DNA of 64,000 nt from an uncultured Prevotellaceae bacterium (GCA_947166905.1 CAMVFZ010000010.1:1905-65904); one strand, 5' to 3'; positions 5,666 to 64,000 are shown, numbered from the stretch's first letter. Notes: generated by a model from the sequence alone, not told the origin. Translations and numbers: made by a program.

Positions 5666-6139
5666 TTATTCGTTGTGATAAGGCTCGCCGCGCATAATTG
5701 TAAATGCGCGATAAAGCTGTTCTGCAAAAATCGTTCTCACTATCTGGTGAGAAAAGGTCATATCCGACAGCGAAAGCTTTCCGGTTGCCCTTGCGTACAC
5801 TTTCTCAGAGAAACCATAGGCTCCGCCAATTACAAAGACGATGTCCCTGCCGCTCCCGGCCATCTTTTTTTCCAGGAAGGACGCAAACTCAAGTGATCTG
5901 TACTTGCGTCCGTGCTCGTCCAGCAGTATTACATCATCCGTCGGCTTAATGGCAGAGAGAATCTTTTCTCCTTCCTTCTCTTTGATTTGCGCGGGGGACA
6001 TTGCGCCCACACCCTTGAGCTCCGGAATCTCGCTTACGGTAAAGGGGATGTAATGGACCAGGCGGGAGCGATAAAGCTCCAGCCCTTCCTTAACCCATGG
6101 CATATCGGTCTTGCCTACCGTAAGAAGGGTAATCCTCAT
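5666..6139 (-). CDS. rlmH: 23S rRNA (pseudouridine1915-N3)-methyltransferase RlmH
   Basis: 157 aa SPOUT-type protein: 'MRITLLTVGKT...', 'FVIGGAYGF', C-terminal 'GEPYHNE'. Confidence 0.9.
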   Translation of the reverse strand: MRITLLTVGKTDMPWVKEGLELYRSRLVHYIPFTVSEIPELKGVGAMSPAQIKEKEGEKILSAIKPTDDVILLDEHGRKYRSLEFASFLEKKMAGSGRDIVFVIGGAYGFSEKVYARATGKLSLSDMTFSHQIVRTIFAEQLYRAFTIMRGEPYHNE

Positions 6140-6223
6140 ACTGTCAGTACCTTTTTTGCAAATATATAAAATAAAGAGGTTTTAGGCTCGAAATTTGCAA
6201 GAAAAATTGAGCCGGATAAAGGA

Positions 6224-6646
6224 ATGAAACTGAAAACAATCATACTGGCGGCTATTGTCGCCCTTGTTTGCACGGCCAATAACGCTGCCGGGCAGAACAA
6301 TCAACAGCGCACATCGTCCTATGATGTTTTCAATCCAATTACCAAATACATCCGACTTGGAGACGTAGAAAAACTGTCGGCATGGTTCTCTGACAATCTG
6401 GAAATTACAATACTCCATACAACGAACGACGCCAGTAAGAATCAGGCTAAACAGATACTGAAATCCTTCTTTGAAACATATACTCCCCGCGCCTTCAACA
6501 TTGAACACACGGCCGGACGCGAATCGATGAAATACGCCCTTGGCTCCATGAAAGCCGGCGGAGATGTATTCAGGGTAACAATCTTCGTAAATCTGGAAGG
6601 AACGAATTACCTGATACAACAGATAAAAATAGAAAAACGGGACTAA
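6224..6646 (+). CDS. DUF4783-like secreted protein
   Basis: 140 aa with a signal peptide (MKLKTIILAAIVALVCTANNAAGQ). The overall pattern is recalled from the Bacteroidetes DUF4783 family, which often sits next to rlmH. Confidence 0.55.
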   Translation: MKLKTIILAAIVALVCTANNAAGQNNQQRTSSYDVFNPITKYIRLGDVEKLSAWFSDNLEITILHTTNDASKNQAKQILKSFFETYTPRAFNIEHTAGRESMKYALGSMKAGGDVFRVTIFVNLEGTNYLIQQIKIEKRD

Positions 6647-6670
6647 AATTTAGCCCCGTTTATTTTTTTT
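6635..6670. terminator. hairpin plus T-run between convergent genes (DUF4783-like / efp)
   Basis: 'aaacgggac' (6635-6643) pairs with 'gccccgttt' (6653-6661) with one mismatch, followed by T8 at 6663-6670. Confidence 0.4.
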
Positions 6671-6683
6671 ACGCTATCTGCGG

Positions 6684-7250
6684 TTATACGCGCTGGCCGT
6701 ATGAGCGGTCTGTGGTATTAACAGTAATCTTCTCTCCGGTGTTGATGAAGAGAGGAACCATAATCTTTGCACCGGTCTCAAGAGTAACCTCTTTGAGTGC
6801 ACTGGTAGATGCGGTGTTGCCCTTTACAGCAGGCTCTGAATAAGTAACCTCCAGAGTAACGTATGTAGGGAGCTCGCAGGTGAGGCATCTCTCCTCAGGC
6901 TCCGTAACGAACATCATCTCTACGTGCTGGCCTTCCTTCATAAGGTCTGCGTTCTCAACCAGATCCTTGGGAAGAGAAATCTGCTCGTAGGTTTCCTCGT
7001 GCATGAAGTTGTAGCCGTCCTCGTCGCCATAAAGGAACTGATAAGGCCTGCGCTCAACAGTGATGGTGTCGATCTTTGCACCAGCGGTAAAGGTGTTCTC
7101 AAGGATACGTCCGTTTTCAAGGTTGCGAAGTTTGGTCTTCACGAAAGCGGGGCCTTTGCCGGGTTTTACATGCTGGAACCATACGATAGAGCACGGTTTT
7201 CCATTGAAATTAAGATAAAGTCCGTTTTTAAAATCAGCTGTTGTTGCCAT
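6684..7250 (-). CDS. efp: elongation factor P
   Basis: Start moved from the ORF-track Met to internal Met36 ('MATTADFKNGLYLNFNG...'; CAT at 7248-7250). Contains the conserved 'VKPGKGPAFVKTKLRNL' loop. 188 aa. Confidence 0.9.
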   Translation of the reverse strand: MATTADFKNGLYLNFNGKPCSIVWFQHVKPGKGPAFVKTKLRNLENGRILENTFTAGAKIDTITVERRPYQFLYGDEDGYNFMHEETYEQISLPKDLVENADLMKEGQHVEMMFVTEPEERCLTCELPTYVTLEVTYSEPAVKGNTASTSALKEVTLETGAKIMVPLFINTGEKITVNTTDRSYGQRV

Positions 7251-7276
7251 ATAAAGTTTTGTTTTGACCTGCGAAG

Positions 7277-8170
7277 TTAAGAAACTGTTTTGAAACCGCC
7301 AAGAACACAGGCAATTTTCTCCAAAAGCCACTTGGGAGTGGAGGTTGCGCCGCACACTCCGATACGGTCTCCGTCACGTAACCAGGAGGGGTCTATTTCC
7401 GATTCCGAGCTCACCCTGTATGTGCGTGGATTGACGCTCTTGCAGAGCTGGAAAAGCACACTGCCATTAGAGCTGTATTTGCCTGATACAAAGATAATTA
7501 CATCATGAGAAGCGGCAAAATCCGCCAGCTGGGCATGGCGTGAAGACACCTGTAGGCAGATGGTATTGTGAACGTTGATAAGGGATTCGTCTTTCATTAT
7601 TCCGCGCAGCACCTGGCAAATCTCTGCAAAAGTTTCCGGGCTACCGGTAGTCTGGGAGAACAAGGCCACCGGGGCGGATGTATTTATCTGGCCGTCGTCG
7701 ATGAATTTTTTAAGCATTTCAACGGTCTCTACCACGATGGCATCGCCACCTGTCTGGCCCACCAGTCCAAGGACCTCTGCATGGCCGATTCGGCCGAAGA
7801 TGATGATTTTTCCGCCACGCGGAGTGACATCGGCATAGGCCTCACGTATTCTTTGCTGGAGTTGCAATACTACCGGACAGGTGCAGTCTATGATCTCTAT
7901 TCCCTTTTCTTCCGCCAGTTTGTAGGTGGACGGAGGCTCGCCATGCGCACGGATGAGAACAGGACCGCCATCGGTCTCAGAAAGCGATTTTATGGTTTTG
8001 AGGCCTTTGTGCGACAGGCGGGAAAGTTCTTCCTCGTTGTGTACGATGGCGCCCAGGGAACTAAGAGTGCAACCGGGGTTGTCCTGAAGATAGTTCTCTG
8101 CGCGGCCTATGGCGCGGATCACTCCGCCGCAGAAGCCTGAACGCTGGTCTATTTCTATTTCAAGGTTCAT
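7277..8170 (-). CDS. ispH: 4-hydroxy-3-methylbut-2-enyl diphosphate reductase
   Basis: 'MNLEIEIDQRSGFCGGVIRAI...HNE...CTCPVV...' is typical of IspH/LytB. The Met6 start (CAT 8168-8170) is preferred because it avoids overlap with cmk; the ORF-track start 8185 remains possible. Confidence 0.88.
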   Translation of the reverse strand: MNLEIEIDQRSGFCGGVIRAIGRAENYLQDNPGCTLSSLGAIVHNEEELSRLSHKGLKTIKSLSETDGGPVLIRAHGEPPSTYKLAEEKGIEIIDCTCPVVLQLQQRIREAYADVTPRGGKIIIFGRIGHAEVLGLVGQTGGDAIVVETVEMLKKFIDDGQINTSAPVALFSQTTGSPETFAEICQVLRGIMKDESLINVHNTICLQVSSRHAQLADFAASHDVIIFVSGKYSSNGSVLFQLCKSVNPRTYRVSSESEIDPSWLRDGDRIGVCGATSTPKWLLEKIACVLGGFKTVS

Positions 8171-55997: not shown

Positions 55998-56112
55998 GAT
56001 AGTTTTTTGGTTAGTTTTTTGTTGGAGTGCGAATTTATAAAAACAAATACTTATATTTGCTAGAAATAGTAACTTTTTTTTGCAAAATCAGTAATTTTTA
56101 ACAGTAATAACT

Positions 56113-57411
56113 ATGGTAAGAGTTAAACCTTTCGCAGCGGTTCGCCCTCCCAAAGGAATCGTAACAGAAGTTGCAGCCCCTCCTTATGACGTCCTGAACT
56201 CGCAGGAGGCCAAGGCTATGGCCGGGGAGAAATCACTGCTTCACATCACTAAACCGGAGATTGATTTCAATCCCATCGCCGATGAGCATTCACAGCCTGT
56301 TTATGACAAGGCTGTAGAGAATTTCAAGCTTTGGCGCCAGAAGGGATGGCTTGTCCAGGACGACAAGGAGAAGTATTATGTATACGCCCAGACGATGGAC
56401 GGCCGCACCCAGTATGGCATTGTTCTTTGCGCTCATACGGACGATTACGCAGAGGGCAAGATCAAGAAGCATGAACTTACCCGCAAGGATAAAGAGGATG
56501 ACCGTATGATTCACGTGCGCATCCAGAACGCCAACATCGAGCCTGTTTTCTTTGCTTTCAAGGACCATGCAGAGCTCAACGCTATTGTTGCCGCCAAGGT
56601 TAAGGAGGCTCCGGAATACCAGTTCACGGACGAGAACAATTTTGGCCACGCTTTCTGGGTAATTGATGACGATGCGGTCATTGCTCGTATTACGGAGATC
56701 TTTACCAATGACATCGATGCATTTTATGTTGCCGATGGTCACCATCGTACCGCAGCTGCCGCTCGCGTCGGTGCAGAGAAGAGGGCTCAGAATCCCAATC
56801 ATACCGGCAAGGAAGAGTATAATTACTTCATGACGGTATGCTTCCCTCAGAGCCAGCTCAAGATCATAGATTATAACCGCGTTGTTAAAGACCTCAACGG
56901 TCTTACTGCAAAGGAGTTCATCGAGGCTCTTCAGAAGGACTTCATAGTAGAATGCAAATGTGACTGCACAAAGGATGGTGGTAAATGCAATTGCGAGCCG
57001 CCTTGCCACTGCAAGTGCTCTGAGGCTTACAAGCCTGCAGGCCTGCACAACTTTGCGATGTATCTTGAGGGCGTATGGTACAGCCTTACTGCCAAGCCGG
57101 GTACATACAATGACTCAGATCCTATCGGCGTGCTTGACGTAACCGTACTTTCCAATCTTGTTCTTGACAAGATTCTGGGTATCAAGGATTTGCGTACCGA
57201 TAAGAGGATTGATTTCGTAGGCGGAATCCGCGGTCTTGGAGAGCTTTCCCGCCGCGTGGACAGCGGAGAGATGAAGGTTGCCTTCGCGCTCTACCCTGTT
57301 TCTATGGAGCAGCTTATGAATATTGCCGACAGCGGCAATATCATGCCTCCTAAGACCACCTGGTTCGAGCCCAAGCTCCGCAGCGGCCTTGCCATCCACC
57401 TTTTAGGCTAA
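56113..57411 (+). CDS. DUF1015 domain protein with an internal Cys-rich insertion
   Basis: 'VKPFAAVRP...VAAPPYDV', 'YVADGHHRTAAA' and 'MPPKTTWFEPKLRSGL' are the DUF1015 hallmarks. Insertion 'ECKCDCTKDGGKCNCEPPCHCKC' at aa 280-302. Confidence 0.8.
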   Translation: MVRVKPFAAVRPPKGIVTEVAAPPYDVLNSQEAKAMAGEKSLLHITKPEIDFNPIADEHSQPVYDKAVENFKLWRQKGWLVQDDKEKYYVYAQTMDGRTQYGIVLCAHTDDYAEGKIKKHELTRKDKEDDRMIHVRIQNANIEPVFFAFKDHAELNAIVAAKVKEAPEYQFTDENNFGHAFWVIDDDAVIARITEIFTNDIDAFYVADGHHRTAAAARVGAEKRAQNPNHTGKEEYNYFMTVCFPQSQLKIIDYNRVVKDLNGLTAKEFIEALQKDFIVECKCDCTKDGGKCNCEPPCHCKCSEAYKPAGLHNFAMYLEGVWYSLTAKPGTYNDSDPIGVLDVTVLSNLVLDKILGIKDLRTDKRIDFVGGIRGLGELSRRVDSGEMKVAFALYPVSMEQLMNIADSGNIMPPKTTWFEPKLRSGLAIHLLG

Positions 57412-57426
57412 CAACATCCCACATAC

Positions 57427-57462
57427 CAAAATGAGAGTGATCAAAAAGTCACTCTCATTTTG
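57427..57462 (+). terminator. hairpin terminator after the DUF1015 gene
   Basis: A perfect 14-bp stem: 'caaaatgagagtga' pairs with 'tcactctcattttg', with an 8-nt loop. Confidence 0.6.
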
Positions 57463-57476
57463 TATATTTGCGCTAT

Positions 57477-57623
57477 ATGAAACAGATAGAAGTAGTTGCG
57501 GCAATCATACGCAAAGGAGATAAGATCTTCGCGACCCAGAGGGGATATGGAGATTGGAAAGACTGGTGGGAATTTCCGGGCGGGAAAGTCCCACTTGAAA
57601 GTAAGGGCAAGTCGTTGAAATGA
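57477..57623 (+). pseudogene. 5' fragment of a NUDIX (MutT-type) hydrolase gene, truncated at the island junction
   Basis: 'MKQIEVVAAIIRKGDKIFATQRGYGDWKDWWEFPGGKV' matches MutT-like N-termini up to the first residues of the NUDIX box. It is followed by 10 unrelated codons (PLESKGKSLK) and a stop. The rest of the NUDIX box (REx2EE) is absent. Confidence 0.65.
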
Positions 57624-57724
57624 TTTGGAAGGCTAATTATTACATAACTACCTACTAATCAAAACCTACAAGCCGCCAATCCCAAATCTTCCTCTTACAA
57701 CAAATTTCAATAGCCAGCCATTAT

Positions 57725-57760
57725 GGGGACAAAAATAATTGTTTTTGTCCCCGCTTTTTT
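57725..57760 (+). terminator. perfect 11-bp hairpin plus T-run just inside the island's left end
   Basis: 'ggggacaaaaa' / loop 'taattg' / 'tttttgtcccc', then 'gctttttt'. Confidence 0.5.
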
Positions 57761-57761
57761 G

Positions 57762-57769
57762 TACCTTTG
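57762..57769 (+). promoter_or_regulatory. -7 type promoter motif (TACCTTTG) for the integrase gene
   Basis: Matches TAnnTTTG, lies 24 nt upstream of the ATG at 57793, and directly follows the hairpin. Confidence 0.4.
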
Positions 57770-57792
57770 TAGAAGAAAAAATTGACTGGATT

Positions 57793-59157
57793 ATGGCATC
57801 AGTGACGCTCACTCTTTCGTCCAAGACGAACAAAGACACCGGCAAGGCGGAAGTCCTCCTCCGCTACCGCAATACTCGTGCGGTGGCCCTTCGCGGCCAC
57901 TCCCGCACCTTCATCCTTCCCAAATTCTTCGTGAATGGGAAAATCGTCATCAAAGCCCGTGTCATCACCCCAGAAATCCAGGAAGCCCTTGATGCCAAAT
58001 CCCAGGTAGACCTCATAAGCGCCCACGTCATCGACAAAGGCAACAGCATCTCCGTAGAGGACTTCACCCAAGACTGGCTGCAGGATACCATCGACCGCTA
58101 CCTCTATCCGGAGAAATACATAGAAGATGAAGACACCGCCCTTGCGTTCCAGGACAAAACGGCCGATTATCTCAAATACACCAAACTGTCAAAAAAGAGA
58201 GAGGAAAACTACGGCATCATCTTCCAGATTGTCTATAGATACGAGATGTACTCCGGCAAACGCCTGATGCTGGACACCATGACCCCGGAAGATCTCTCCG
58301 CCATCGAAGAGTTCATGCGCACCGAACATACCCTCTTCACCGTCACCGGAAAATACTTTCACCGCAAATTCAAGCCGGTTCCGCGCTACGAATACACCTG
58401 GACGCACACCGTCCACGGTCGCGCCCCGCTTGGAAGGAGTGAGAATTCCATCGTTTATTATATGAAGGCTATCCGTGCCTACTGGCACTGGCTGCTGGAC
58501 ATGGGTTACACCACCAACAATCCCTTCAAACAATACTCCACAGGCTCCCAGAATTATGGCACGCCCTACTACCTCACCACCGAGGAAAGAGACATCTATT
58601 ACAAAGCAAAGCTGGATGACGAAGAGCTTGCTCTTGCCCGCGACATATTCGTCTTCCAGTGCTACGTCGGCTGCCGTATCAGCGACCTGTTCAACCTCAC
58701 CCCGGAAAACATAGTCAAGAGCCCCAACGGACTCTCCGTACAATACATTCCGGAGAAGACCAAGAAAGACCGCCAGCGCACCGTCAAGGTCTATCTGGCC
58801 CCCACCGCCATTGAGATTATGAAGCGGCACCAGGGCGAAGATCCGGAGCACCTCTTCCCCCGTATGCGTAACTGGAAGCTTAACACCTCCATCCGGGAAG
58901 GGCTGCATGAAGCCGGTATCGACCGCGTGGTCACCACAATCAATCCAAAGACCGGAGCCTCGGAGCAGCACCCCATTTGTGACGTAGCCAGCTCCCACAT
59001 GGCCCGCCGTACCTTCATCGGCAACCTCTACAAGAAAGTAAAAGACCCCAACCTCGTCGGAAAACTCTCCGGCCACTGCGAGGGTTCCCGTGCCTTCGCC
59101 CGCTACCGCGACATCGACGATGATATGATCAAGGAAATGACCGACCTGCTCGATTAA
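57793..59157 (+). CDS. tyrosine-type site-specific integrase (Bacteroidetes element type)
   Basis: Start moved to Met19 ('MASVTLTLSSKTNKDTGKAEVLLRY', arm-binding type N-terminus). Catalytic region 'CRISDL...', 'SSHMARRTFIGNLY' (HxxR) and 'GHCEGSRAFARYRD' (Tyr). Confidence 0.9.
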   Translation: MASVTLTLSSKTNKDTGKAEVLLRYRNTRAVALRGHSRTFILPKFFVNGKIVIKARVITPEIQEALDAKSQVDLISAHVIDKGNSISVEDFTQDWLQDTIDRYLYPEKYIEDEDTALAFQDKTADYLKYTKLSKKREENYGIIFQIVYRYEMYSGKRLMLDTMTPEDLSAIEEFMRTEHTLFTVTGKYFHRKFKPVPRYEYTWTHTVHGRAPLGRSENSIVYYMKAIRAYWHWLLDMGYTTNNPFKQYSTGSQNYGTPYYLTTEERDIYYKAKLDDEELALARDIFVFQCYVGCRISDLFNLTPENIVKSPNGLSVQYIPEKTKKDRQRTVKVYLAPTAIEIMKRHQGEDPEHLFPRMRNWKLNTSIREGLHEAGIDRVVTTINPKTGASEQHPICDVASSHMARRTFIGNLYKKVKDPNLVGKLSGHCEGSRAFARYRDIDDDMIKEMTDLLD

Positions 59158-59161
59158 AGAT

Positions 59162-60031
59162 ATGAATCCGATACTCAACTCCCTGAAGGCCCTCTCAGCG
59201 GCGGCAAACGAAGTCCTGCCGCTGCTGGAGACCCACGACTACCGCGAAGAAGCCAAGCACGTCAAGGACGCGAAACTGCCGCTGAGGATGATGCCCAAGA
59301 CCATCCAGGAAATCTTCAACTCCGTGATGCGCTACATCATCCCCGTTATGGGTGACGAAGACCCGCTTCCCGGCGACGCCCTTCTGACCAGCGACAACAT
59401 GACCATCTTCTCCGATAACCTCACCGTCACCGGAGACACACAGCTCGCCCATCAGTTCCAATTCGTCCAGATCGAGCCCATTCAAGCCGTGGCCGACGAA
59501 TTCACGGAGCTCGGCCTGCACCAGCAGGCGACGCTCCTGGAGAATGTATGCCGATTTGCCCGTAGCATCCGGCAGGCCCACAACGCCGCTCCTTTCGGCA
59601 ATACAGGGAGAGACCTCGCCCCGGTTCACTACGTCCTGGCGCTCAGTCCGGAGGAACTCAGCCAGCGGGAAGAAGAAGACAAGATGCTCTTCACCCAGTT
59701 CTGCTCCGTCTTCGTCAAGGACATTTTCTCCCTGGAGCAGAAAAAAGACCTGTACGTCGCCCTGCAGAACGTCATTGCCGATACCACCGAAAAGAAGCCC
59801 CACCTGGTGGTGATGACCGTCATTCTCCTGCTGCGCAACCGGAAGGCATACAAGAGCCCCATCCCGGGCAAGCTCAACTCCGTCCGCGAAACCGTCTTCC
59901 ATTCCCTCGGCTTAGACCCCAAGTCCTGCCATACCTACGGCGACAAGTCCATCTTGAGGGGCGGCAAACCCTCCCTTGAAAAGTACAAACCCAAAGCCGA
60001 GGACATTTTGAAATCCACAGTTGGGAACTGA
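59162..60031 (+). CDS. hypothetical protein (island-encoded)
   Basis: 289-aa ORF 4 nt after the integrase stop with the same GC3-rich codon style. No motif recognised. Confidence 0.5.
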   Translation: MNPILNSLKALSAAANEVLPLLETHDYREEAKHVKDAKLPLRMMPKTIQEIFNSVMRYIIPVMGDEDPLPGDALLTSDNMTIFSDNLTVTGDTQLAHQFQFVQIEPIQAVADEFTELGLHQQATLLENVCRFARSIRQAHNAAPFGNTGRDLAPVHYVLALSPEELSQREEEDKMLFTQFCSVFVKDIFSLEQKKDLYVALQNVIADTTEKKPHLVVMTVILLLRNRKAYKSPIPGKLNSVRETVFHSLGLDPKSCHTYGDKSILRGGKPSLEKYKPKAEDILKSTVGN

Positions 60032-60072
60032 CCCAAATTCAATTTTGGGAAACTTTGGGAAAAACCTTTGTA

Positions 60073-60101
60073 AACCGCTTGCTATCAAGCGGTTATTTTT
60101 T
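60073..60101 (+). terminator. hairpin terminator after the integrase/hypothetical pair
   Basis: 'aaccgcttg' / loop 'ctat' / 'caagcggtt', followed by 'attttttg'. Confidence 0.5.
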
Positions 60102-60159
60102 GCGTCAAAATACTTGAAAAAAGATTTTTTGGGAATTTCAAGCCCGTTTTTCAACGCCT

Positions 60160-60167
60160 TACATTTG
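60160..60167 (+). promoter_or_regulatory. -7 type promoter motif (TACATTTG) ahead of the HTH-primase-helicase operon
   Basis: Matches TAnnTTTG and lies about 115 nt upstream of the ATG at 60285. Confidence 0.3.
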
Positions 60168-60284
60168 TCATGCATTACGATGGAAACGGAAGTAAAGCAG
60201 TCGTTCCGGACGATGTAGCCACTGCCTTCAATGGCAACCGCTTTTACTGCTTTGCGGGTGGCTTAACCATTAAATCTAAGCATT

Positions 60285-60614
60285 ATGACGCAAGATTTAA
60301 TCTCCCTCGCCGAGCAGTATCCAGGCCTTACCGTCCAGATCAAGCTCGATGACCTTCTCAAAGCCGGTCGAACGCTGACCGGCGAGATCCTGGACTACAT
60401 CGCCGCCCACGGCGCCCAGGCCCCCGTACCCGCTGCGCAGCAGGACGAACTCCTCACCTCCGAGGAAGCCTGCCGCAAGCTCAGCGTCTCCAACACCACC
60501 TTGTGGCGCATGGCGCAGAGCGGACTCCTCACGCCCGTAAAAGTAGGTGTCCAGAACCGTTACCGGCTCTCCGACATCGCCGAACTCATCAGCAAAAAAG
60601 GAGGCAGAGTATGA
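60285..60614 (+). CDS. excisionase/AlpA-type helix-turn-helix DNA-binding protein
   Basis: C-terminal 'LTSEEACRKLSVSNTTLWRMAQSGLLTPVKVGVQNRYRLSDIAELI' is an HTH_17/MerR-like excisionase signature. Confidence 0.7.
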   Translation: MTQDLISLAEQYPGLTVQIKLDDLLKAGRTLTGEILDYIAAHGAQAPVPAAQQDELLTSEEACRKLSVSNTTLWRMAQSGLLTPVKVGVQNRYRLSDIAELISKKGGRV

Positions 60615-60817
60615 GAAAGCCAATGAAAGGAAGTGAGCTTATGCACCGACTCATCCTCAACGACCCCAACGACCCGTATGTCCAGCTGTTTCGCCGCTGT
60701 CCCTTCGTCCAGAACCTGATGCTCCAGCAGGGTTACATGACCCCCGACGAGCTGACGGACGAAGAGCGCGAACGCATCGGTAACATCATTGATCTGGAGG
60801 ACCTGCCCCATGACTAA
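60611..60817 (+). CDS. small hypothetical protein (68 aa)
   Basis: Internal Met37 of ORF 60503..60817. ATGA overlap with the preceding gene (60611-60614); its stop overlaps the next start by 8 nt. Confidence 0.4.
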   Translation: MRKPMKGSELMHRLILNDPNDPYVQLFRRCPFVQNLMLQQGYMTPDELTDEERERIGNIIDLEDLPHD

Positions 60818-61841
60818 GGAATACCTCCTCTCCAAGACCCTCGGAGGTGCCGATATCATCCAGCACCTCATCCGCAAGGAATTCCCGGACCACATCATGC
60901 ACGTCAAAGGCCAGGACTGTGGCGAATGCCCCGATCCGGTTTGGGCCGATGGCAGCATCATCCAGGTAACCCTGGACCGCATTCCCATTGAGGGCACCAA
61001 GATGGCCGAGTACCGCGCCCGGTATCACTATCCCGATGGCCAGATGCTGGACGGCGATGCCATCGCCCTGGCTATGGCCTACTACCACCAGCGCGGGGAG
61101 GACCTCTCCCTGGAGCAGCTCATTGCCCGCCTGGCGGAAGAACTCTACGTCAAGGAACCGCGCAAGCCCTTCTTCCAAGAGCCTGAGCCCGAGCAGGCGC
61201 CGGAGCCGAAGCCCAAAACGCCGGAAATCCCGCCTTGCCCCAAGATGAGCTTCTTCCGCCGGCCCATCCGCAACACGCGCCCTTGCCGCGATGCATCCCC
61301 GCAGGATGTCTATAAGTATTTGGTGAGCGACTATGCGAAAACCAATACCGAGAAACTCCGCAGCATCAAAGACCCGAAGGAACGTAGCCGGTTCAAGTCC
61401 CAGAACTTTGATTACGTGACGCCTGGAGGAATCTTCCGCAGCCGGAAAGAATCCGACCTGGTGAAAGCCAGCGGCTATATGGTCATTGACTTCGACCACA
61501 TTTCCGACCCCGAAGGCCTGGTGCTCCTGCTGGCCAACGAAGAGAATTTCGAGACCATCCTGGCCTTCCGCTCTCCTTCCGGTGATGGCGTCAAATGGTT
61601 CGTGGCCCTGCCGCCCGATGCCAAAAAGCCCGACGGAACGCCCTTCACCTACGGCGAGTTCTTCACCATTCTCAGTAACTATGTCCGCCATGCCTACGGC
61701 TACGAAGCAGACCCTTCCGGCAAAGACATCTGCCGTGCGTGCTTCCTTCCGTACGACCCGGACGCATTCCTCAATCCGTTTTACCTCGAAGACAATTATG
61801 AATACGACATCTCAAGATTTCTTGATGGATCTGCTGAGTGA
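60810..61841 (+). CDS. BT4734/VirE_N-like primase domain protein
   Basis: Start at Met8 (ATG 60810). The C-terminal half 'ASGYMVIDFDHISDPEGL...AFRSPSGDGVKWFVALP...DPSGKDICRACFLPYD' fits the recalled BT4734-like N-terminal (primase-like) domain of Bacteroides element replication proteins. Confidence 0.65.
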   Translation: MTKEYLLSKTLGGADIIQHLIRKEFPDHIMHVKGQDCGECPDPVWADGSIIQVTLDRIPIEGTKMAEYRARYHYPDGQMLDGDAIALAMAYYHQRGEDLSLEQLIARLAEELYVKEPRKPFFQEPEPEQAPEPKPKTPEIPPCPKMSFFRRPIRNTRPCRDASPQDVYKYLVSDYAKTNTEKLRSIKDPKERSRFKSQNFDYVTPGGIFRSRKESDLVKASGYMVIDFDHISDPEGLVLLLANEENFETILAFRSPSGDGVKWFVALPPDAKKPDGTPFTYGEFFTILSNYVRHAYGYEADPSGKDICRACFLPYDPDAFLNPFYLEDNYEYDISRFLDGSAE

Positions 61842-63624
61842 GGGCGACAAGCCCTCCTCCCAGCAGGCCCAGGCTCCTGTCAACCATCCCTCCGCCCCGG
61901 TGCCCTCCACGGACACCGGAGCCCGGGTGGAAGCCCTAATCGCCGCTCTGAAAGCCGCCGGTACGGACATCACCGCCGACTACAACGACTGGCTCAAGGT
62001 GGGCTTTGCCCTGGCCGGAGAGTTCGGTGAATCCGGGCGTAGATACTTCCACGCCATCAGCTCCCTCTACCCGGGGTATGACCAGGCCGAAAGTGACACT
62101 AAGTACACCGAGTGCCTGAAATCAGACTCCGGCAGGACGGATATAAGTACCCTCTTCTATCTTGCGAAAAATCAGGGTGTTACCCTCGAACGACCCGCGA
62201 ACGCGCCGGGAACGAGCCACGACATACCACGCAAAAAAGGTCAAAGTGACAAAAATGTCCCTTTGTCCCTTTTGGAAGATGACCCAGAAGAAATGCCGCT
62301 CTTGCCGGTGTTCCCCGAGTCCATCTTCCCGTCTCTTCCCAGCCTGCTCAAAGAAGTCACGGATCTGATGATTACCGACCAGGAACGCAGCCTTGTTCTC
62401 ATCGGAAGCATCGCAACAATCAGTTCAGCCCTGCTGCCCTTCAGAACCGTGTATTTCGGCAAGACCATTTATCCCAACATGTATTTGTTTGTTCCCGGTC
62501 CCGCAGGTGCTGGCAAGGGAAAGCTCGACTTCTGCCTGCGGCTGGTCATGCCCATTCACAAGGAAAAGTTGGAGCGCTGGAACACGGCCAAAGACGAATA
62601 CCGCAAGGAGTACGCCCGTTACAAACGTCAGAAAAAAGGTGAGAACATCGACCCGCCGGAGAAACCTCCCATCCAAATGCTTCGTGTTCCGGCCAACAGT
62701 TCCGCCACCTCGTTCGCGCAAGCAATGGCGGAGAACGGCAACCTACTGATGTTTGAGACCGAGGGCGACACCGTGGTCAATTCATTCTCCAGCGATTTCG
62801 GCAACTACAGCGATTCGTTCCGCAAGGCCTTTGCCCACGAGAGTTTCGGGTATTTGCGCCGCGGAGACGACGGAGAAGAGAAGGAAATCGACAATCCGCG
62901 CCTTTCCACGGTTTTGTCGGGCACGCCGGAGCAAGTGAAATCGCTCATCAGAGATGCCGAAAACGGGCTCCTTTCACGGTTCATGTTTTTCTGCATCAAC
63001 GCCACGCCCGAGTGGATGGACGGTTTCGATTCCTATGGTAGCGACGCTCCGCTGGAAGATACCTTTAACGCCATCGGTGCCAGGTTCTGCGCCTTCGCCA
63101 AGACTTTGGAGAACACGCCAACGATCCGGTTCAGTCTCTCGCTCCCGCAGATTGGCAAGTTCAACGATTTCTTCAAGGCCGAGAAGCAGCGGATGCAGGA
63201 TGTCAATGGCGACCGCTATTCTGCCAGCTCCCACCGCTTGGCCTGGTGCTTCCTGCGGGTTGCGATGGTGCTTACGGCGCTGCGAATGATGGATTCCGGT
63301 GACGTGAGGGAAACAGTTGAATGTGCGGACGTTGACTTCGACGCCACCCTGGAGATCATCCGCGTGATTTCGGTCCACAACGACTACATTTTCAACGTTC
63401 TTGACCGGGAGCGACCGGAGGGAATCGCTGTGGCCGACTCTTATTCTGCCGCCACCAGGAAGACGATTCTGGCTGCACTTCCGGGGTACTTCAAGACAGA
63501 CGATATGAAGGATGTGGCCCGGAAGGTTGGTAAGACGTTGCGAACGGTTCGGAGGCAGGTCGCGCGGGCCATCCAGGCCGGAGAGGTTCTGCAGGTCAAG
63601 CACGGCGAGTACAAAAAGATTTGA
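61798..63624 (+). CDS. PriCT-2 + DUF3987 (P-loop helicase-like) replication protein
   Basis: Start at Met105 of ORF 61486..63624 (ATG 61798). 'DYNDWLKVGFALAGEFGESGRRYFHAISS...TDISTLFYLAKNQGV' is PriCT-2-like. Walker A 'VPGPAGAGKGKL' sits within a DUF3987-like body. Confidence 0.72.
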   Translation: MNTTSQDFLMDLLSEGDKPSSQQAQAPVNHPSAPVPSTDTGARVEALIAALKAAGTDITADYNDWLKVGFALAGEFGESGRRYFHAISSLYPGYDQAESDTKYTECLKSDSGRTDISTLFYLAKNQGVTLERPANAPGTSHDIPRKKGQSDKNVPLSLLEDDPEEMPLLPVFPESIFPSLPSLLKEVTDLMITDQERSLVLIGSIATISSALLPFRTVYFGKTIYPNMYLFVPGPAGAGKGKLDFCLRLVMPIHKEKLERWNTAKDEYRKEYARYKRQKKGENIDPPEKPPIQMLRVPANSSATSFAQAMAENGNLLMFETEGDTVVNSFSSDFGNYSDSFRKAFAHESFGYLRRGDDGEEKEIDNPRLSTVLSGTPEQVKSLIRDAENGLLSRFMFFCINATPEWMDGFDSYGSDAPLEDTFNAIGARFCAFAKTLENTPTIRFSLSLPQIGKFNDFFKAEKQRMQDVNGDRYSASSHRLAWCFLRVAMVLTALRMMDSGDVRETVECADVDFDATLEIIRVISVHNDYIFNVLDRERPEGIAVADSYSAATRKTILAALPGYFKTDDMKDVARKVGKTLRTVRRQVARAIQAGEVLQVKHGEYKKI

Positions 63625-63632
63625 CCGAAAGG

Positions 63633-63672
63633 AGCCCCGGGCGGCAGTTCGGGGTTTTCCTTTTTGCTTGAT
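63633..63672 (+). terminator. short GC hairpin plus T-rich tail after the helicase gene
   Basis: 'ccccg' (63635-63639) pairs with 'cgggg' (63650-63654), followed by 'ttttcctttttg'. Confidence 0.35.
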
Positions 63673-63781
63673 TTATTGTAAGTTGAGTGTACGGCAGACA
63701 CTTTAAATTTTATAATTGAGAGAAAATGAGTAAATTTGTTGGTTTAATGGGATATTATTCCCCAGAGAGAAGCAAGACACC

Positions 63782-64000
63782 ATGGCTAAAATAGTGAATC
63801 GTCAAAAGACGTATACTTTCATTGACCTATTCGCAGGCTGCGGAGGGTTAAGCGAGGGTTTTATCGAGACAGGCCGGTTCAAATCATTAGGCCATGTGGA
63901 ATGGGAAAAGCCGATGGTTGATACTTTACGTCACAGGCTTGTGTCCAAATGGGGCTTCTCGGAAGACCAGGCAAAAAAAGATGTGATTCTTTTTGACATA
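63782..64000 (+). CDS. DNA (cytosine-5)-methyltransferase, N-terminal 73 codons (continues beyond the window)
   Basis: Hand translation gives 'MAKIVNRQKTYTFIDLFAGCGGLSEGFIETGRF...'. Motif I is 'DLFAGCGGLSEGF'. It is absent from the ORF track because no stop codon falls in the window. Confidence 0.8.
   Translation, partial: MAKIVNRQKTYTFIDLFAGCGGLSEGFIETGRFKSLGHVEWEKPMVDTLRHRLVSKWGFSEDQAKKDVILFDI

Follow-up and report, generated by a model that had tools for sequence, protein, structure and literature searches.

A mutT-like NUDIX gene as the probable insertion target of a site-specific, defence-carrying integrative element in an uncultured Prevotellaceae bacterium

The right end of a 64,000-nucleotide stretch of DNA from an uncultured Prevotellaceae bacterium (GCA_947166905.1, CAMVFZ010000010.1:1905-65904; hereafter the window) carries a severed NUDIX (mutT-like) gene, followed directly by a block of genes that opens with a tyrosine integrase, continues with predicted replication genes and breaks off within a DNA methyltransferase gene. 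We assigned domains with Pfam profiles, searched NCBIfam, PHROGs, PADLOC and Rfam for further families, took identities from BLAST, and used AF2 models and Foldseek for structures. The last 6.4 kb of the window (57584-64000) are the left quarter of a mobile element, with its own end at 57584. This end lies within a 48-codon open reading frame (ORF; 57477-57623), whose match to PF00293 is limited to the NUDIX N-terminus (residues 3-38) and which has no Nudix box. The first 36 codons (57477-57583, plus strand) are the start of the host NUDIX gene, severed from the remainder, and are identical to the start of an intact 127-residue NUDIX gene in near-identical flanks. The exact protein encoded by the DUF1015 gene upstream was found on 14 other contigs, four of which (L001, L003, L004 and L007) have this intact gene next, followed by two dNK genes. 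The empty-site contigs match the window at 98.7% identity over 56000-57586 and are unrelated beyond, and L001 is 99.3% identical to it across 11.5 kb of left flank. An initial annotation of the window had proposed an insertion into a NUDIX gene after the DUF1015 gene, and the island-free relatives bear this out, as they carry the uninterrupted gene and not the 48-codon ORF. The host gene is MutT/NudG-like, scoring 94.5 bits against TIGR00586 (cut-off 97.9).

Similarity to island copies in other contexts starts at about 57570 (57569/57570; over the range of copies, 57569-57477), at 92-97% identity or, for a diverged copy (L020), 76%, and host sequence ends at 57583-57586, within the codons for WEFPGG and after the 'GG'. 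The truncated N-terminus had first been read as far as 'WEFPGGKV'; the truncation stands, while the 'KV' is derived from the island, whose left end supplies the tail of the ORF (57584-57623, plus strand; …KVPLESKGKSLK and a stop codon) and is kept in every island copy regardless of left flank. The end points of host and island similarity delimit a left attachment junction, attL, with the core TGGGAATTTCC-GGGCGG-GAAAGTCCCA (57567-57593); with a slash marking the junction, it reads …TGGGAATTTCCGGGCGG/GAAAGTCCCACTTGAAAG. The sequence GGAAAGTCCCA (57583-57593) is an inverted copy of the first 11 bp (TGGGAATTTCC) at 10 of 11 positions, forming an imperfect inverted repeat around GGGCGG, and the stretch 57573-57586 (TTTCCGGGCGGGAA) recurs at the right junctions of relatives. 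Judging from these sequences, the crossover region would lie at about 57576-57583. The left end GAAAGTCCCACTTGAAA... was seen in 14 distinct left contexts, comprising known loci and one scan of metagenome contigs. In 12 of them the junction falls, exact to the base, behind codon 36 of a NUDIX gene, the encoded peptides comprising at least seven variants, and the NUDIX fragments share only about 80-87% DNA identity where the islands themselves are 96-100% identical. In the remaining two the island sits at look-alike sites: L017 has GAGGAATTCCCGGGCGG, and L020 has GAACTTGCCGGCGG, which lies within a BNR_2 sialidase-like gene. The recurrence of the codon-36 junction, together with these look-alike sites, therefore indicates that the integrase recognises DNA encoding W-E-F-P-G-G. 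No tRNA gene was found near the insertion.

Two observations concern NUDIX loci of this kind in other genomes. In L002 (11354-13347), which has a 93% identical left flank, the NUDIX gene is absent and the DUF1015 gene is followed by a HigB/HigA-like pair (Gp49, HTH_31) and a Schlafen-like helicase; divergence begins 12 nt upstream of the NUDIX start codon, and the locus is therefore a variable hotspot. In L047-L054, a chromosomal NUDIX gene (P0232) has a fixed right neighbour, a GH28 gene, and variable left neighbours across strains, the pattern expected of elements that time and again insert and decay on the gene's 5' side.

From 57584 to about 63750, the left module of the island carries integration and replication genes, all on the plus strand and 92-97% conserved. 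GC content is 36% at 57600-57799, compared with 50-60% in the genes, and the integrase starts 210 nt from the junction (57793-59157; PF00589, E 3e-9), with 454 residues from its ATG or 472 from a TTG at 57739. Its candidate catalytic residues, picked by eye and unaligned to a characterised integrase, are R (GCRISD), HxxR (HMARR), H (GHCEGS) and Y (FARY). Next comes ORF289 (59162-60031), a conserved gene with homologues at the same position in relatives (93-99%, 57% and 38% identity); it has no Pfam, PHROGs or NCBIfam match, and its AF2 model is unusable (pLDDT 41). Sequence searches of PHROGs, Pfam and PDB gave nothing further for the integrase, ORF289 or the proteins of the right module described below. 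A 109-residue helix-turn-helix protein of the HTH_17 family follows (60285-60614; PF12728, E 9e-11), a candidate excisionase or regulator that scores 27.5 bits against the TIGR01764 excisionase domain, below the 28.8 cut-off. The start of ORF68 (60611-60817) overlaps the HTH_17 stop (ATGA); it is called as a gene of 58-68 residues in all island loci and has no family match in Pfam or NCBIfam. The remaining two genes encode a 343-residue BT4734-like primase of the archaeo-eukaryotic type (AEP; 60810-61841, the frame being open from 60789; PF08800, E 3e-21), which also has a weak PrimPol match in NCBIfam, and a 599-residue P-loop protein (61825-63624, or 608 residues from 61798) with PriCT_2 (PF08707, E 3e-14) and DUF3987 (PF13148, E 1e-45) domains, predicted to be the replicative helicase. 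According to published work (PMC5862659), BT4734-like proteins constitute a family of AEP primases, and a helicase function in mobile elements has been predicted for DUF3987. The parts first listed for this block, namely an AT-rich junction, a TAnnTTTG motif, an integrase, an orphan ORF, an HTH protein, a 68-residue ORF, a primase and a P-loop protein, were all recovered at or near their original positions, and the proposed domains (PF00589, HTH_17, the BT4734-like PF08800, PriCT_2 and DUF3987) hold. The genes are indeed co-oriented, but they do not overlap tightly throughout as had been proposed: there is a 4-nt gap between integrase and ORF289 (59157/59162) and a 253-nt gap at 60032-60284.

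TAnnTTTG is a Bacteroidetes-type promoter motif, and TACCTTTG (57764-57771, plus strand), read from the sequence 22 nt upstream of the integrase ATG, is a putative promoter. Between it and the junction lies an inverted pair of GGGGACAAAAA motifs (GGGGACAAAAA/TTTTTGTCCCC; 57725-57752), a perfect 11-bp inverted repeat followed by a T run, which a hairpin scan marked as terminator-like and which is identical in the 76%-diverged L020 island. The initial annotation had called it a perfect 11-bp hairpin; the repeat is there, yet it belongs to a set of five GGGGAC(A) motifs flanking the island ends, two inverted copies here and three within 100 nt of the right junction (attR) in L097 and L091. On sequence grounds the pair may equally well represent integrase or excisionase arm sites or a terminator shielding int from read-through. 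The 253-nt gap contains a putative control region (60073-60167, plus strand) with a terminator-like hairpin (60073-60094), the sequence TGGGAATTTCA (60130-60140) and a second TAnnTTTG motif, TACATTTG (60160-60167). The hairpin and this motif therefore suggest three transcription units: int-ORF289, HTH_17-ORF68-primase-helicase, and the cargo. Flanked by the terminator that follows ORF289 and the promoter-like motif of the operon headed by HTH_17, TGGGAATTTCA is identical to the attL arm TGGGAATTTCC at 10 of 11 positions and is kept in all close island copies; it may be a binding site for the integrase or a regulator. Another terminator-like hairpin (63631-63658, plus strand; hairpin scan) closes the replication operon, and by BLAST end points, conservation among island variants stops at about 63745-63770. 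Rfam gave no match within the window.

The cargo begins at the very end of the window, as had been noticed at the outset, with the 5' end of an m5C (5-methylcytosine) DNA methyltransferase gene (63784-64000, plus strand; starting MAKIVNRQKTYTFIDLFAGCGG...) that spans 420 residues in an overlapping contig (PF00145, E 3e-56; PADLOC MTase_II, E 1e-104). This contig (L029/L055, CAMVSK010000030.1) overlaps 63344-64000 of the window (657 bases) at 100% identity, including the cargo-type-specific start of the methyltransferase. Its cargo consists of the methyltransferase, a 239-residue protein, an AAA_5 protein that matches LlaJI-kind type II restriction enzymes (AAA_5/REase_II; PADLOC), a 583-residue protein, Vsr and a full NUDIX gene, which agrees with the earlier view of a defence-carrying island; the 239- and 583-residue proteins have no family matches, and in particular the latter has no McrC match. 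Across islands, the cargo comprises one or two m5C methyltransferases, the AAA_5 protein and a protein of 583-590 residues, in some cases joined by Vsr or AbiE/DUF6088. The last gene is usually a NUDIX gene that starts within or shortly after the one before it, and variable unassigned genes come next. Between L009 and L011 the cargo is 99.98% identical while the core modules are only 96.4% identical, and the right module is 97.9-98.4% identical between islands of differing cargo. The L009/L011 identities fit an exchange of cargo by recombination within conserved ends, and by these comparisons cargo and core modules have separate histories. Escherichia coli NudG hydrolyses 5-methyl-dCTP, and Vsr repairs m5C deamination damage; by analogy, it is possible that the NUDIX and Vsr proteins are functionally linked to the m5C methyltransferase cargo. 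An S-adenosylmethionine (SAM)-I/IV riboswitch (RF01725; 57-59 bits, gathering score 41) was found in three diverged islands, L029 (7708-7805, minus strand), L018 (19477-19576, minus strand) and L041 (11130-11231, plus strand), where it precedes a Cys-rich 171-residue gene on the opposite strand just right of the island NUDIX gene. A SAM sensor thus co-occurs with SAM-dependent methyltransferases in the same element.

The far side of the element was reached in relatives. Its right module starts with a GC-rich, gene-free stretch of about 1.8 kb, followed by genes of 92/93, 196-264, 350, 248, 89-92, 157-180 and 237 residues and an amidase gene; from the gene-free region to just past the 231/238-residue gene it is 97.9-98.4% identical between islands with different cargo. 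A walk rightward on the L020 contig (L041, L091) passed 13 kb of genes without family match, then a two-membrane-helix protein, a lipoprotein, the 237-residue gene and Amidase_3. Beyond these lies the junction …GGAAATGCATCTATTTCCCCG/ACGGGGAACTTCTTC… in L091, where the frame continues as a sialidase C-terminal part (Asp-box, YSDL motif), followed by host TonB-receptor genes. This is the 3' part of the same sialidase gene as is cut in L020, and its two halves are 27,620 nt apart on one contig (L020 to L041 to L091). At two further right junctions the island is joined to the 3' part of a NUDIX gene: L095 reads …KCIYFPGG/KIEPGETPEEALRREILEE, and L097 has AGGAAATGCATCTACTTTCCGGGCGG/GAAGGTGGAAGAG, reading MKYLNAYLIDLQNNRKCIYFPGG/KVEEGESPEDALRREIREEL. 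L097 and L091 align up to exactly the junction. All three (L091, L095 and L097) are in-frame fusions of an island ATG and 23 codons, MK[SY][IL]N…KCIYFP(GG), to the 3' part of the target, and a direct repeat, TTTCCGGGCGG(GAA), makes up the shared attL/attR core in these relatives. The missing NUDIX 3' part and a direct repeat, both anticipated by the initial annotation, were thus seen in relatives, the repeat corresponding to 57573-57586; they lie about 26-28 kb from attL and not just past the cargo, so the island extends much further than first supposed and the window holds only its left quarter. No core-like motif was found right of the island NUDIX gene, which is explained by the difference between the right arm and that of the target. 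When the neighbouring dNK protein served as query, only relatives of 88-99% identity were retrieved and attR was not reached from the host side.

Several features of the right module stand apart from its genes. The gene-free stretch (L055 12690-14440; L063 12136-13888; L091 about 5740-7700) has 59-66% GC compared with about 41-59% nearby, contains many hairpins, is 97.9% conserved and has no Rfam match; it may serve as an origin of replication or represent a large structured RNA. Some 150-200 nt in from the right end (L097 10520-10620; L091 13230-13310; L096 4290-4370), a TAnnTTTG motif stands ahead of a conserved hairpin (GTCTGRTGCCAGAC), after which come TGTTAACACC and a terminator. This unit, which may be a small RNA, is common to the island and to a second element, type X, described below. 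In L063 (14986-20411) and L064 (15013-20316), radical-SAM/PqqD/ScmC clusters of the type producing ribosomally synthesised and post-translationally modified peptides (RiPPs) follow the 238-residue gene; a 415-nt flank is inverted between the two, one end of the inversion coinciding with the terminator at the close of the conserved right module.

Taken together, we put at roughly 0.8 the probability that 57584-64000 forms the left end of an element, about 26-28 kb long and integrating site-specifically, that has recombined into the mutT-like NUDIX gene. The size of the window's own island is estimated at about 26 kb by extrapolation, because L055 reaches the start of the 350-residue gene and relatives add 4.4 kb from there to attR. 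The integrase would join the attP of the element, predicted as …GGAAATGCATCTAYTTYCC-SGGCGG-GAAAGTCCCACTTGAAAG… and flanked by GGGGAC(A) repeats, to the W-E-F-P-G-G DNA just before the Nudix box; the predicted attP junction is …GCATCTAYTTYCCSGGCGGGAAAGTCCCACTTGAAAG and the predicted restored attB is TGGGAATTYCCGGGCGGCAAGATGG. Insertion would leave attL as the dead 48-codon ORF and, about 26 kb to the right, an attR at which an island ATG and 23 codons (…KCIYFPGG, …GGAAATGCATCTAYTTYCCSGGCGG) would be in frame with NUDIX codons 37-127 (CAAGATGGAGGCCGGCGAAACGCC…), followed by the two dNK genes. Excision and replication as a circle would be the task of int-ORF289 and the HTH_17/ORF68/primase/DUF3987 helicase operon. 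Between the conserved modules, variable defence cargo (here the m5C methyltransferase, a putative LlaJI/McrBC-like restriction pair and Vsr) would be swapped by recombination, with a complete NUDIX paralogue as the likely last gene of the cargo operon, and the right module would end with a membrane protein, a lipoprotein and an amidase beside attR, in a prophage-like arrangement. The general mode of action is like that of other tyrosine-integrase islands, and the predicted integration, excision and autonomous replication parts are well supported by domains.

Three NUDIX entities have to be kept apart in such an insertion: the dead 48-codon ORF left at attL, the fusion at attR and the island's own copy. 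In the attR fusion, which would encode a putative NUDIX protein, the 23 island codons loosely resemble a shortened NUDIX N-terminus and codons 37-127 keep the Nudix box. The island copy is complete (PF00293, E 6e-20; MutT/NudG-like by NCBIfam), and its core is GCMCCWGGYGG or TACCCAGGRGG instead of the target's TTYCCSGGCGG. The islands of L010 and L014 are 100% identical over 13 kb, including 112 NUDIX codons, whereas their left flanks are unrelated and their NUDIX fragments only 81.6% identical; therefore, the left fragment belongs to the target and the right-hand NUDIX gene to the island. We had considered the cargo-linked NUDIX gene as a reconstituted target, a possibility ruled out by the L010/L014 comparison, by the full NUDIX gene in the sialidase-inserted L020 (L091) and by the changed core. 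Since its FPGG codons differ from the target sequence, the island copy probably keeps NUDIX function. It likely makes up for the lost gene and may in addition guard against self-insertion, and whether its changed core is an adaptation is uncertain. Such a reading is weakened by type X, which in L096 (96-4473) and L099/L103 has entered a NUDIX gene carried by an island, again at the FPGG codons, giving the fusion MKLLFPGG/KIEAGESPEQ (P0341) in place of the intact P0351. This element carries genes of 365, 246, 156 and 127 residues, then Peptidase_M15_3 and DUF6808. The severed NUDIX fragment of L009 overlaps a PLD-helicase gene at the latter's stop codon, with an Abi_2 gene just upstream, as if the fragment had once been the last gene of an earlier island. 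The island NUDIX family matches the PADLOC candidate PDC-S07 across the whole profile (E 1e-47; L055 6329-7000), and the L055 protein carries an extra C-terminal domain of about 95 residues that is found alone elsewhere (P0342-P0345). The link of NUDIX with defence genes may thus reflect its role as attachment site and island passenger.

A number of points weigh against an element of this kind and extent. The right end of the window's copy lies outside the window, and the L055 overlap is only 657 nt long and lies within the island, so that its host could be a different one; moreover, most contigs, including those of all relatives, are metagenome assemblies, in which chimeras at repeated islands could arise. 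No attP or circular junction was found among matches to the left-end motif in viral and metagenome contigs, absence from assemblies being weak evidence. No capsid, terminase, portal, relaxase, type IV secretion (Tra)/conjugation or coupling-protein family was recognised in Pfam, PHROGs or the gene tables, full-length relatives included, and the AF2 model of the 350-residue protein (pLDDT 80) gave only generic beta-sandwich or fibre-head matches with Foldseek TM-scores of about 0.2. Many copies (L063-L072) have RiPP gene clusters after the 238-residue gene and no right junction within reach, and may be rearranged or immobile. Finally, NUDIX genes with WEAPGGK or WEYPGGK also exist without an island nearby, so the changed core need not be an adaptation, and we rejected these variants as island-specific.

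Other accounts of the boundaries fare considerably worse. That the 48-codon ORF is an old deletion pseudogene, with the integrase block merely adjacent, would explain the truncation itself and nothing more; given the same base-exact junction in 12 different NUDIX genes and the intact genes at empty sites, we consider this vanishingly improbable. Alternatively, the island might be short, about 12.5 kb, and end inside the cargo-linked NUDIX gene, which would then be a hybrid of island 5' and host 3' parts, everything further right belonging to the host or another element. Such a hybrid would fit the fact that most copies have the NUDIX gene behind the cargo, its start lying within the preceding gene, and likewise the chromosomal-looking riboswitch-controlled gene just beyond it in three hosts, and the existence of NUDIX genes with varying left and fixed right neighbours. 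However, it is hard to reconcile with L010 and L014, which stay 100% identical through codon 112 despite different targets, or with L020, which sits in a sialidase gene and yet keeps a full NUDIX gene, its true right junction lying 13 kb further on. As the right-hand NUDIX core also lacks the attL repeat and real right junctions bear a quite different island-encoded N-terminus, MKSINCYLLDIQNKGKCIYFPGG, we regard a short island as very unlikely.

Within the reading we prefer, a site-specific integrative element of 26-28 kb, the route of transfer is less settled. Spread by lysis and packaging, satellite-like or virus-like, is the route that we infer to be the most likely, at somewhat below even odds; conjugative mobilisation is improbable, and what is left falls to other routes or to no transfer at all. 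The element could be a complete temperate virus, probably without a tail and of a kind not yet recognised, with the genes from 92/93 to 237 residues and the amidase as virion and lysis proteins. A prophage-like order, with integrase and replication genes on the left and the two-membrane-helix protein, lipoprotein and Amidase_3 beside attR, speaks for this, as does type X, which uses the same target, has a 246-residue protein homologous to the island's 248-residue protein at the same relative position (27% identity, E 2e-17) and ends with an endolysin-type Peptidase_M15_3 gene. The 350-residue protein, furthermore, belongs to a large family (1220 relatives at E <= 0.001 among representatives) and shares an N-terminal region with the 238-residue protein. 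On the other hand, the right module lacks Pfam and PHROGs matches, among them any terminase, portal, major capsid or tail gene, no capsid fold was recognised in the model of the 350-residue protein, a packaging ATPase was not found, and integration and replication genes and cargo take up over half of the roughly 27-kb element. The left-end motif and a 362-residue protein are absent from IMG/VR, which contains only two relatives of the 350-residue protein. Overall, a complete virus seems rather unlikely. An NBU-like integrative mobilizable element, moved by a co-resident conjugative transposon and using its amidase for cell-wall passage, would suit the Bacteroidales host and the left-end order, which resembles that of NBU1/NBU2, but no relaxase, Mob or conjugation Pfam family occurs in gene tables covering full-length relatives, and the target is a protein-coding gene instead of a tRNA gene; this, too, appears unlikely. 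A broader and speculative proposal, which we think doubtful, is that the element and type X are unrecognised virus-like or satellite-like agents of gut and rumen Bacteroidales, with particle or transfer genes that have no known relatives, their own insertion-resistant target copy, by which the cost of destroying the target would be offset, and an exchangeable defence platform.

Comparison with known systems places the element close to several groups, yet on the features looked for it qualifies neither as an NBU-type element nor as a P4/PICI satellite, the groups that its left end resembles. NBU1/NBU2 and Tn4555-type elements share its host group, an integrase about 200 bp from the left end, small ORFs, an excisionase-like and a primase-like gene, and site-specific insertion with a short common core; in contrast to their 10-12 kb and tRNA 3' end target, the island has about 26-28 kb, a protein-coding target, no Mob or relaxase that could be found, a lysis-like right end and defence cargo. 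The satellite-like layout of integration and replication genes that the initial annotation had pointed out is real: P4-like satellites as well as phage-inducible chromosomal islands (PICIs) have the same order of int, AlpA/Xis-type HTH gene and primase/helicase, and variable anti-phage cargo between conserved modules. However, none of their hallmark genes (psu, delta, sid, cos, terS or capsid-redirecting genes) was recognised, the island has a BT4734-type AEP and a separate DUF3987 protein instead of P4 alpha, and it is larger; we know of no helper phage for it. Insertion inside a conserved coding gene with the displaced end replaced and the ORF kept recalls SXT/R391 in prfC and phage 21/e14 in icd, from which the island differs in that its replacement N-terminus, of putative function, is 13 residues shorter and in that it brings a complete second copy of the target. 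The cargo resembles LlaJI-type restriction-modification systems, with m5C methyltransferase(s), then an AAA_5/McrB-like protein and a second large subunit, and several island variants have two methyltransferases; the variant in the window departs from LlaJI in its 239-residue second gene without family match, its 583-residue partner without McrC match, and the appended Vsr and NUDIX genes. Streptococcal integrative and conjugative elements (ICEs) also use mutT as a specific target, by means of serine recombinase triplets; they are conjugative, simply disrupt the gene and leave 2-8 bp repeats (PMC4701971). Unlike them, the island has a tyrosine integrase, and the target gene would be provided for rather than simply disrupted. 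Our literature searches retrieved no description of a Bacteroidales element with such a target, a two-fold provision for the target gene or such a right module.

The island family is widespread in gut and rumen Bacteroidales, the exact HTH_17 protein being listed in 623 blocks of the searched collection. The window's DUF3987 protein has no exact match there in either its 608- or its 599-residue form, which means that the collection does not contain the contig of the window itself. The exact ORF289 protein is present at NCBI in a metagenome-assembled genome labelled Acidaminococcaceae (MBR6860516.1), which also holds a 238-residue right-module protein, the identical one being present in L063, and a NUDIX fusion that falls in the 90% cluster of the L055 copy; the island contig was probably misbinned, or the island crossed phyla.

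While mutT is already known as an ICE target (PMC4701971), and replacement of a target's 5' end is known from SXT in prfC, our analysis delimits an attachment site to single-base precision, within the part of a housekeeping NUDIX gene whose coding sequence is most conserved, and points to an element that limits the damage it causes through a replacement N-terminus at attR and a spare copy of the gene. By shuffling restriction-modification, Abi and other defence cargo between conserved ends, this island family is likely a vehicle for defence-gene flow in rumen and gut Bacteroidales. It also illustrates how guilt-by-association predictions of defence systems can pick up attachment-site genes, as with the NUDIX family listed as PDC-S07 in PADLOC: if these elements were indeed unrecognised virus-like or satellite-like agents, PDC-S07 NUDIX would be an attachment site and hitch-hiker and not a defence gene. 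The roughly 10 kb of conserved island genes without known relatives offer a concrete target for finding a new transfer or particle system.

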